A stretch of DNA of 64,000 nucleotides from Verrucomicrobia bacterium UBA1629 (GCA_002321305.1 DCMF01000098.1:28976-92975); one strand, 5' to 3'. Positions 38,200 through 39,285 are shown, numbered from the stretch's first letter. Numbers and translations are program-made. Notes: generated by a model not told the origin, from the sequence alone.

Positions 38200-39285
38200 T
38201 CACATCACCTTCATCTTCGGCAGGTCCTGGATGTCCACAAGCCCCACGATGCGGCCTTCCGCGTCGCAGACGGGCAGGTCGTCGATTCGCATCCTCTCGA
38301 AGATCTTCAGCAGCTCCGCCGCGTAGGCGTCGTCATGGACGAACTTGGGCGATTTCGTCATATGCTCGGCGACAGGCGCCGAGAGAATAATCGAATAATC
38401 GAATCGCCGAATCGTCGAATCGGGGGAAGTCTCCGAACCCGACGAAGCCCCCGTCTCTTCATTCATTCGATCATTCGACCATTCGTTCATTCGATTATTT
38501 TCCCGACTCATCACCCGCCGGAAGTCGCCGTCGGTGAAGATGCCGAGAAGCCGGCCCGCCGCATCGGCGACGACCGCCGCGCCGCCCTGCGCCTTCGTCA
38601 TCGCCATCACGGCCTCCATCACCGTCGCCGTCGGCGCGACCTTCGCGAGCCGGTCGCCCGTGCGCATGATGTCCGTCACCTTGAGGACAAGCGCACGGCC
38701 GATCGCGCCGGCCGGATGGTTCGCCGCGTAGTCCGCAAGCGAGAACTTCTGCGCGTCGATCATCACCATCGCGAGCGCGTCGCCCATCGCGAGCGTCGCC
38801 GTGACCGAGTTCGTCGGCGCCATGCCGAAGGGACACGCCTCCTTGCCGCAGGGAATCTCCACGTGCAGGTCGGCGAGCCGCGCGAGCGTCGACTGCGGAT
38901 TGCCCGTCAGCGCAATGACCTTCAGCCCGTGGCGGCGAATCGCCGGGATGAGCCGCACGACTTCCTCGGACTCGCCGCTGAACGAGAGCGCAATCAGCAG
39001 ATCGCGCGACGACACCATGCCGAGGTCGCCGTGCATCGCCTGCACGGGATTGAGGACGATCGAGCGCGTGCCCGTCGAGGCGAAGATCGCGCTCATCTTC
39101 TCCGCGACGTGCAGGTTCTTGCCGACGCCCGTGACGACGACGAGTCCGTCGTTCGCCACGCAGTCCCGCATGAGGCGGATGGCCGAGACGAACGATGCGC
39201 CGAGCGAGTCGCGGGTCTTCTTCAGACCCTCGATCTCGATGTCGAAGACTTGCTTCGCGCGCGTGATCATCTCGGTTTCGGTCAT
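38200..39285 (-). CDS. kdsD: Arabinose-5-phosphate isomerase (KdsD/KpsF type, SIS plus tandem CBS domains). It carries a family B in-frame insertion between the CBS domains.
   Basis: SIS region VVVTGVGKNLHVAEKMSAIFASTGTRSIVLNP...ALSFSGESEEV and CBS pairs. The insert is [45 protein letters not shown]. Confidence 0.85.
   Translation of the reverse strand: MTETEMITRAKQVFDIEIEGLKKTRDSLGASFVSAIRLMRDCVANDGLVVVTGVGKNLHVAEKMSAIFASTGTRSIVLNPVQAMHGDLGMVSSRDLLIALSFSGESEEVVRLIPAIRRHGLKVIALTGNPQSTLARLADLHVEIPCGKEACPFGMAPTNSVTATLAMGDALAMVMIDAQKFSLADYAANHPAGAIGRALVLKVTDIMRTGDRLAKVAPTATVMEAVMAMTKAQGGAAVVADAAGRLLGIFTDGDFRRVMSRENNRMNEWSNDRMNEETGASSGSETSPDSTIRRFDYSIILSAPVAEHMTKSPKFVHDDAYAAELLKIFERMRIDDLPVCDAEGRIVGLVDIQDLPKMKVM
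38382..38504. repeat. Family B element in frame in kdsD.
   Basis: gagagaataatcgaataatcgaatcgccgaatcgtcgaatcgggggaagtctccgaacccgacgaagcccccgtctcttcattcattcgatcattcgaccattcgttcattcgattattttcc. Confidence 0.8.

Follow-up and report, generated by a model that had tools for sequence, protein, structure and literature searches.

We analyzed a window of 64,000 nucleotides (nt) from Verrucomicrobia bacterium UBA1629 (GCA_002321305.1, DCMF01000098.1:28976-92975), with positions counted from its first letter, and characterized a repeat element, Family B, that lies within a gene for a KdsD-like arabinose-5-phosphate isomerase. Family B is built from 8-nt units TCGAATNN with the outer end GGAAAT-NN-TCGAAT, and its arrays are either solo or paired in inverted orientation on the two sides of a variable centre. 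The stretch is probably one copy of a non-coding, lineage-specific family of repeats in gut Kiritimatiellae, sitting in permissive slots, selfish or neutral, and translated as a disordered loop in kdsD. A previous sequence-only reading of the window had pointed to this element, and our analysis confirmed the observation and supported its interpretation. The host gene and the element are as follows.

38200..39285, minus strand: host gene, KpsF/GutQ-family arabinose-5-phosphate isomerase (kdsD-like), an intact open reading frame (ORF) of 361 amino acids.
38386..38502, minus strand: Family B element, delimited by comparison of filled and empty alleles; 117 nt, 39 in-frame codons, residues 262-300.

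Pfam recognized in the host protein a SIS domain at residues 49-173 and two CBS stretches. The protein scored 288.4 bits against TIGR00393, above the cut-off of 203.7, with a match split in two by the insert. Against the KdsD equivalog NF008141 it reached 272 bits, below the cut-off of 505, partly because the insert splits the profile match. The protein thus belongs by profile score to the KpsF/GutQ family, and the name KdsD is presumptive; the enzyme is one of the LPS-precursor pathway. As the sequence-only reading had proposed, the element is located between CBS1 (...FTDGDFRRVM) and CBS2 (LSAPVAEHMT...), where it is preceded in the protein by ...FTDGDFRRVMSR; the lower GC content that it had noted was also measured (46.2% vs 66.4% in the remaining gene). 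In an AlphaFold model built on 30 homologues, the predicted local distance difference test (pLDDT) was below 50 at residues 266-294 of the insert, and the means of 10-residue blocks were 84-96 for residues 201-260 (CBS1) and 78-94 for residues 301-350 (CBS2). These values are best explained by a 39-residue loop, predicted to be disordered and tolerated in a flexible linker, that would leave the fold intact.

The kdsD element consists of two inverted arrays of TCGAATNN units around a GC-rich centre:

38458..38502, minus strand: 5' arm (gene sense), GAAAAT-AATCG followed by units of TCGAATNN, read as ENNRMNEWSNDRMNE; four copies of direct-repeat family D1, spaced by 8 nt.
38423..38457, minus strand: GC-rich loop at the centre, variable, in which GGGGG/CCCCC forms a separate small stem; its translation is approximately ETGASSGSETSP; from the fold prediction.
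38386..38422, minus strand: 3' arm (gene sense), NNATTCGA units ending in ATTATT; four copies of direct-repeat family D2, spaced by 8 nt, and inverted repeat I1.

On the plus strand, direct 8-nt arrays were detected at 38385-38420 (GAATAATC / GAATCGNC; four units at 8-nt spacing, namely GAATAATC, GAATAATC, GAATCGCC and GAATCGTC) and at 38458-38499 (TCATTCGA type and variants; four units of the reverse type, with a period of 8 also reported by TRF). The inverted repeat has 41-nt arms (38380-38420 and 38465-38505) that are 80% complementary and 44 nt apart. The whole element was predicted to fold into one long interrupted stem, with -64.1 kcal/mol as RNA (z = -6.1) and -30.9 kcal/mol as DNA (z = -3.9), and none of 200 shuffles folded as well. 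In the window, the decamer CGAATAATCG was found 18 times with at most one mismatch, compared to 3.7 expected, a count that none of 100 shuffles reached. Four ATTCG cores at 8-nt spacing, with at most two mismatches, were observed 24 times compared to 0 expected (none in 100 shuffles), and all these matches cluster in four places, at 23.45-23.60, 24.74-24.91, 38.38-38.50 and 41.79-41.84 kb. A search of the whole window against Rfam 15 gave no match at the gathering threshold. Predicted tryptic peptides derived from the insert include MNEWSNDR and FDYSIILSAPVAEHMTK.

The decamer and ATTCG-array scans place the kdsD element in the same inverted-array family as two copies in uvrA, as had been suggested, and bring the total for Family B to three full copies and one solo copy in the 64 kb:

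23446..23595, minus strand: second Family B copy, in frame in uvrA, from the array scan and translation.
24742..24906, minus strand: third Family B copy, in frame in uvrA, from the array scan and translation.
41791..41836, minus strand: solo Family B array, directly downstream of the TAA stop (41837-41839) of a giant ORF (41837..54535, minus strand), from the array scan and TRF.

UvrA is 1087 residues long compared to the 943 positions of the UvrA profile, and its equivalog match (1300 bits) is broken into three stretches. The uvrA ORF (22471..25734, minus strand) also carries two further in-frame inserts of another family, at 24075-24156 and about 25180-25299, which makes four foreign segments. 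The solo array at the end of the giant ORF is two units (16 nt) shorter in the orthologue from L005 (related loci are numbered with the prefix L, protein alleles with P).

We then compared the linker among KdsD homologues, using the 120 best, 64-100% identical and from gut metagenomes, one of them named Kiritimatiellae. The flanks of the linker were nearly invariant, and the linker itself ranged from 19 to 100 residues, with four states:

17 of 120: short plain linker with no insert, e.g. AKSSGGVSV or AQASDRSGV.
33 of 120: Family B, as a full hairpin or a solo left arm; the example then continues into the old linker AVVDCPPSAV.
31 of 120: an unrelated inverted array of 12-nt units (TAGGGTC / GACCCTA), e.g. 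GSDRVGIESNRVG... (DNA in L129).
39 of 120: other inserts, GGACGGGAC-type hairpins (L130) and, in P0035, a hairpin peptide resembling the non-B inserts of uvrA.

An array family of some kind therefore expands the linker in 103 of the 120 homologues, and B-bearing and B-free alleles are interleaved across three sub-clades. In distant kdsD alleles (P0006 to P0009), the element differs by frame-keeping blocks. The alignment of orthologues, which the sequence-only reading had set as a test, thus revealed no conservation of the insert: it was absent from the 17 empty alleles, and most of the others carried other families. Taken together, these comparisons show an insert that is non-ancestral and variable between strains, and, judged from these alleles, the inter-CBS linker is a recurrent slot for several unrelated array families.

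The best-matched pair of alleles, L007 (empty) and L128 (filled), is 96% identical outside the element. In L128, the element takes the place of 21 nt of linker (TCTTCCGGGGGCGTGTCAGTC), which correspond to the 7-codon core of the ancestral inter-CBS linker. The element is thus foreign to the linker, as the word "inserted" in the sequence-only reading implied, but it is not a clean addition, since this core was replaced. That reading had also raised target-site duplications (TSDs) at the ends of the element: no direct repeat was present at the borders of the L007 and L128 alleles, nor at the coaE or ackA/pta slots described below. By eye, we also compared the hairpin centre with the old host linker, as if arms had been added on both sides of it. 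The two had in common only the heptamer GAAGTCT, which is on opposite strands, and a vague likeness of ASSGS to KSSGG, and this candidate was rejected as too weak.

A census of copies, the other test set by that reading, returned further copies beyond the window in related genomes. When reference genomes were scanned for four ATTCG cores spaced by 8 nt, the matches listed, which are a lower bound, were mostly unrelated perfect microsatellites from many phyla. Among them were at least 8 arrays at 5 loci in metagenome-assembled genomes of Kiritimatiellaeota or rumen 'Lentisphaerae', all of them solo Family B arrays abutting a gene end and all oriented from the gene end into GGAAAT-NN-(TCGAATNN)n. 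With the terminal motif as query, 29 loci were obtained from metagenomes, of which 4 were chance matches without an array. Full hairpins were in frame in carB at a domain junction (L132), in hisH in the other open phase (L149, EIIELSNK...) and in a methyltransferase gene (L143), and an in-frame Family B was also present in coaE (L006 and relatives). In L156, a full element occupies the entire spacer from the stop of an Amuc_1102-like gene to the start of pilM. At four loci (L144, L147, L152 and L153), the TAA of a solo array is itself the stop codon of the upstream gene.

Three other searches were negative. The only match among viral contigs was an unrelated AT-rich microsatellite. A word-indexed protein census with a synthetic arm consensus gave four candidates and no match, and an exhaustive phmmer search with the uvrA insert gave no match at E ≤ 0.001, both with short low-complexity queries that are ill-suited to such searches. 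Side-by-side perfect 7-8-nt arrays of different units were seen in L062 (Chloroflexi), L110, L056 (Verrucomicrobiales) and L084 (Latescibacterota); examples from these distant phyla are (TATTGGG)n beside (ATTCGCTG)n, and (GGGGCAG)n, (CGAATCAG)33 and (CCGAAAT)n. Spacer arrays of several short-unit families may be a wider, little-described phenomenon.

The same collection of copies bears on the possibility of a classical MITE (miniature inverted-repeat transposable element), a non-autonomous element of the cut-and-paste type that would have tandem 8-mers as terminal inverted repeats and would be moved in trans by a transposase encoded elsewhere. The small size of the element (117 nt, below about 300 bp), its 41-nt inverted arms and its conserved outer GGAAAT are as expected of a MITE, as are the many dispersed copies, the nesting of another hairpin family in the loop of the carB copy and the weak inner motif GAAGAG...CTCTTC found in several loops. 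By contrast, no TSD is formed and 21 nt of target are replaced. The centres of the kdsD, uvrA (two), carB, hisH and coaE copies are unrelated, the kdsD loop having no counterpart in the others; only the arrays and the outer terminus are common to the copies, and there is no full-length consensus. Among the reference and metagenome loci, solo arms are no rarer than pairs, and L151 has a hybrid pair, a solo B array joined to an array of 9-nt units within the frame of an amidohydrolase-like ORF. In the 64-kb window, no transposase was found. A further case comes from a 9-nt family in a murC-like gene of the window:

5338-5413 and 5557-5593: two inverted arrays of 9-nt units (CGGGAGGTT / CTTCCAAAC), in frame (PPQPPQPPEPSKPPKPSKPPEP, GGLEGSGGLEGLE) in a murC-like ORF (4898..6223, minus strand).

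These arms enclose 143 nt of conserved MurC coding sequence (VPGRHN...GVERRLQ), and therefore such a pair can enclose genuine host sequence, which weighs against a MITE; the MurC equivalog score is 256 compared to a cut-off of 335. Overall, we consider a classical MITE unlikely.

Since the period of Family B is 8 nt, successive units enter the reading frame in different phases, and a unit TCGAATAA or TCGAATGA yields a stop when GAA is a codon. All 120 kdsD alleles are nevertheless in frame, with an ORF that is open through the element. We tabulated the two variable bases of each unit by phase in ten genic arms. In the stop-prone phase, none of the 15 units had AA, GA or AG; the bases found were GG, CG, TG, GT, AT and TA, which give W, S, L, C or Y (in the 5' arm of kdsD, the unit reads GAA-TGG). 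In the other two phases of these arms, 32 of 38 units had AA or GA, and in intergenic arrays AA, GA or AG made up 52% (59/114). This avoidance of stops was seen in kdsD, uvrA, coaE, carB, hisH and the methyltransferase gene, in alleles that are partly non-independent (three are kdsD). The difference of the units in the stop-prone phase accounts for the 24-nt super-period reported by TRF, and the patterning accounts for the recurring peptide NNR-I/M-x-E-[WSLCY]-S. Because genic copies are free of stops in this phase, the pattern shows that the insert is translated, with genic units purged of stops by selection as far as the codons indicate. If the insert were excised from the RNA or the protein, no such patterning would be needed.

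The stop-avoidance pattern is also something that misassembly cannot produce. An assembly or binning artefact, in which a metagenome contig is joined chimerically or has a repeat collapsed, had to be considered, as repeats are hard to assemble and one related locus (L164) has an N-gap inside its coaE array. However, another public assembly record (Logan SRR1747049, L002) agrees without a difference over 10,967 nt that include the kdsD element, and no allele has its ORF interrupted within the element. In addition, the P0002 allele of KdsD occurs on 23 contigs, and the element was identical in all ten loci compared. We regard an artefact as extremely improbable.

A host function was weighed on the same data. 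The insert could be kept because a long and flexible linker between the CBS domains is useful, or because its mRNA hairpin (-64 kcal/mol) makes ribosomes pause between domains or tunes transcript stability. The strong RNA fold, the position exactly at a domain boundary, shared with the carB copy at its domain junction, and the enlargement of the linker by array families in most homologues would agree with this, and the hairpins of cyanobacterial STRR (short tandemly repeated repetitive) sequences have been proposed to stabilise transcripts (PMC2670836). Nevertheless, the peptide is unconserved and is replaced by unrelated families or absent, the same DNA is also found outside genes, and AlphaFold models the insert with low confidence. 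Selection on mRNA structure was tried as an explanation and rejected: the sense RNA was more stable in the three window copies, but in only 6 of 9 genic copies overall, and the other three had a large reverse bias. A role for the host thus appears quite unlikely.

To follow the arrays between close relatives, we used ten strains from different samples that share the identical KdsD protein P0002 (L005, L006 and L160-L167). Their DNA is about 99.4% identical; over 20.9 kb, L005 and L006 show 126 mismatches, of which about half fall in a swapped coaE element. The B-like array in the coaE-rho spacer varied in steps of 8 nt (115, 139, 147, 155 or 163 nt), and seven variants were present in nine strains. 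Between ackA and pta, the array differed by +16 nt among near-identical strains, the spacer downstream of kdsD by +24 nt in a B-like array and +28 nt in an array of 7-nt units, and a CGCTGTC array by 7 nt. Comparison of these strains shows that the intergenic arrays change by whole units, in a manner that would fit slippage. The genic kdsD copy is frozen because a slip of one unit (8 nt) would shift the frame.

In addition to these steps, whole families differed at fixed slots. In coaE, the slot follows HP-V/I-VKERI, and the window has there a hairpin of 9-nt units:

29401-29449 and 29527-29576: in-frame coaE hairpin of 9-nt units, in the coaE ORF (29125..29805, minus strand); the site of the relatives is at about 19.5-19.8 kb in L005, L006 and L129.

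L129 has yet another type (GGGACG). Within the ten-strain set, a GAAGAAGG-type hairpin is found in L005, L160, L161 and L164, and a Family B hairpin in L006, L162, L163, L165, L166 and L167. The two coaE alleles differ only in the element and about 18 nt of host flank. Flanking single-nucleotide polymorphisms are common to both alleles, which makes this an old dimorphism that recombination has shuffled. A very recent replacement, which the 99.4% identity of L005 and L006 could have suggested, is ruled out by this sharing.

Downstream of kdsD, the window has a GAGAGACG-type hairpin, compared to a solo B-like array in L005 that starts directly at the kdsD stop (TGA|GAAATGGTCGAATG). The spacers flanking kdsD in the window (38000-38200 and 39300-39440) are occupied by families other than B, namely TTCAGAT 7-mers and a GAGAGACG/CGTCTCTC-type hairpin. 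At the slot upstream of rho, the CCCTCAC 7-mers of the window correspond to a B-like array in L005; a TGAGAGG x15 array of the window lies at 29006-29114, just upstream of rho (27426..29003, minus strand). The ackA/pta junction is empty in the window (GGGGGGAAAGAAATGA) and filled in L005 (GGGGAAGGGGAAATAATCGAATAA) with a solo B array and a hairpin; from the empty sequence, the target therefore resembles the terminus of the element. Within the ackA ORF (40475..41671, minus strand), a divergent block at 41411-41506 measures 96 nt in the window compared to 51 nt in L005, a net in-frame insertion of 45 nt (15 codons) in the window only, …ANPALVSTHDSRLTSRNPL…, of the CTCACGTCTC type.

The unit-step changes between near-identical strains could suggest a local microsatellite, in which the arrays arose in situ by slippage alone in an unconstrained linker, with no movement between loci, and unrelated perfect 8-nt ATTCG arrays do exist in many phyla. 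However, the TCGAATNN unit and the GGAAAT terminus recur at dozens of unlinked loci in several genomes, close relatives have a plain linker of the ancestral type, and whole families are swapped at a single slot. An origin by slippage alone is therefore highly improbable.

Besides the period of 8 of Family B, TRF reported families of period 7, 9, 13 and 19 in the window. A 7-nt array, TGAGGGG x11, is located at 8360-8437 in the infB ORF (6263..8845, minus strand) and translated as PSPLTSHPSPLTSHPSPLT in the N-terminal region of IF-2. The spacer upstream of uvrA (25735-26513) is almost all longer-period arrays, of 13 nt (25857-25961), of 19, 26 and 45 nt (26222-26368) and of 10 and 20 nt (26366-26418). 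Two regions of another nature were also observed. At 62980-63606, a run of CCG/CGC triplets with 76% GC lies inside a large ORF (54908..64000, minus strand) that leaves the window end. At 10902-13047, a low-GC island (56-59% vs 66%) carries a DNA cytosine-5 methyltransferase (TIGR00675, 190 bits) that adjoins a 309-residue ORF without family match, and is probably a horizontally acquired restriction-modification pair.

Returning to Family B as a lineage-specific repeat, the distribution of the copies is best explained by permissive slots that it shares with its sister 7-, 9- and 12-nt families, namely the bases that immediately follow a stop codon, the spacers between genes and the disordered loops at protein surfaces. 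New copies, or the replacement of one family by another, would arise without a staggered cut of the transposase type. The route could be the repair of hairpin breaks, or template switching during replication that copies other arrays through short homology to the GGAAAT terminus, and we infer spread by such a route. Inverted pairs could form if a hairpin were extended across its axis or if addition at a break were symmetric, and selection would remove genic copies unless they are stop-free, a multiple of three in length and in a tolerant loop.

Several points weigh against this explanation. No de novo seeding event was caught in the material compared, which consists of the window and fragments of related genomes. 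As judged from the shared polymorphisms, the coaE dimorphism gives no date for a replacement. Matched-arm hairpins are too common for two independent solo insertions, which hints at a process making both arms at once. The weakly conserved GAAGAG...CTCTTC loop motif also fits a unit-length mobile element with a decaying centre, and a benefit to the host, through linker length or mRNA structure, keeps a slight chance of contributing. Rather than being passive, the arrays could be written by an active, sequence-specific process undescribed in bacteria. This could be a templated addition of TCGAATNN to both ends of a break, similar to telomere-like healing, or an enzyme targeting the bases of existing hairpins. 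The former would account for arms with GGAAAT outward, unrelated centres, solo arms at one-ended breaks, the lack of TSDs and small flank deletions; the latter would account for the replacement of whole families at fixed slots. We hold such an active process to be rather improbable.

If a repeat family in permissive slots is the correct explanation, gut Kiritimatiellae, known almost only from metagenomes, carry translated repeat hairpins in uvrA, kdsD, murC, coaE, infB, ackA, carB and hisH. This would be a second, independent case of selfish DNA inside coding genes after Rickettsia, in a free-living high-GC host. Its dynamics can be observed: array families compete for slots, intergenic copies step by unit, and genic copies are purged of stops in every third unit. 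The inserts split profile matches and lower their scores, leaving KdsD and MurC below equivalog cut-offs, and they mark permissive loops in essential enzymes. Hypervariable intergenic arrays are potential sensitive strain markers, and the seeding of arrays without TSDs could reveal a new route of DNA propagation.

Finally, we compared Family B with known systems; searches in the full text of open-access papers turned up no description of such elements in Kiritimatiellae. Eukaryotic Foldback transposons have inverted arms of short tandem repeats and variable centres. Family B shares these long inverted arms and variable centres, whereas Foldback elements measure kilobases, belong to eukaryotes, produce TSDs and in some cases are linked to a transposase. 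MIRU elements are tandem repeats in operon spacers, with frames that overlap the flanking stop and start codons and a copy number that varies between strains. The spacer arrays of Family B resemble them in spanning flanking stops and starts and in strain-variable copy number, but MIRU units are 40-100 bp, have no inverted-array arrangement and are not known inside essential ORFs.

MITEs and the REP/BIME sequences associated with RAYT are, like Family B, small, dispersed, non-coding inverted-repeat elements, often 3' of genes and sometimes nested. Family B differs from them in having no TSD, no full-length consensus and no GTAG/CGTC REP head, and no RAYT or insertion-sequence partner was found in the available sequence. 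In place of the imperfect palindrome of 20-40 nt with a GTAG/CGTC head of REP/BIME, it has a GGAAAT terminus and tandem-array arms of 40-90 nt. Nor does Family B behave as a phase-variable contingency locus: every one of the 120 alleles keeps the frame, the genic copy does not vary in 10 strains with variable intergenic arrays, and the hosts are housekeeping genes.

Rickettsia palindromic elements (RPEs) are described as palindromes of about 100-150 bp, present in many copies and in frame in unrelated housekeeping genes, where they are translated, at sites compatible with the protein fold and with no known transposase (Ogata et al., 2000, as summarised in PMC10969869). Family B is similar in all these traits: palindromic, multicopy, in frame in unrelated genes, translated, at fold-compatible sites, and with no known transposase. 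In-frame translated copies of this kind were found in kdsD, uvrA (two), carB, hisH, coaE and the methyltransferase gene, a resemblance that is functional only. RPEs differ in their hosts, obligate intracellular alpha-proteobacteria compared to a free-living gut Kiritimatiellae host of 66% GC, and in being unique sequence, whereas Family B has arms of variable-copy tandem 8-nt units, unconserved centres, solo arms and hybrids, competition for slots and most copies abutting stops. In view of its arms of tandem units, homology of Family B to RPE families is very unlikely.

STRR are tandem 7-bp units able to form hairpins, intergenic, with several families per genome, and their function is unknown (PMC2670836). 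With their short tandem units, their capacity to form hairpins and their several families per genome, they are the closest analogue in architecture; they are described as intergenic, in heterocystous cyanobacteria, whereas Family B, from an unrelated lineage, is also in frame in essential genes and has an 8-nt unit with two variable positions. Overall, by analogy, Family B appears closest to RPEs in behaviour and to STRR hairpins in architecture.

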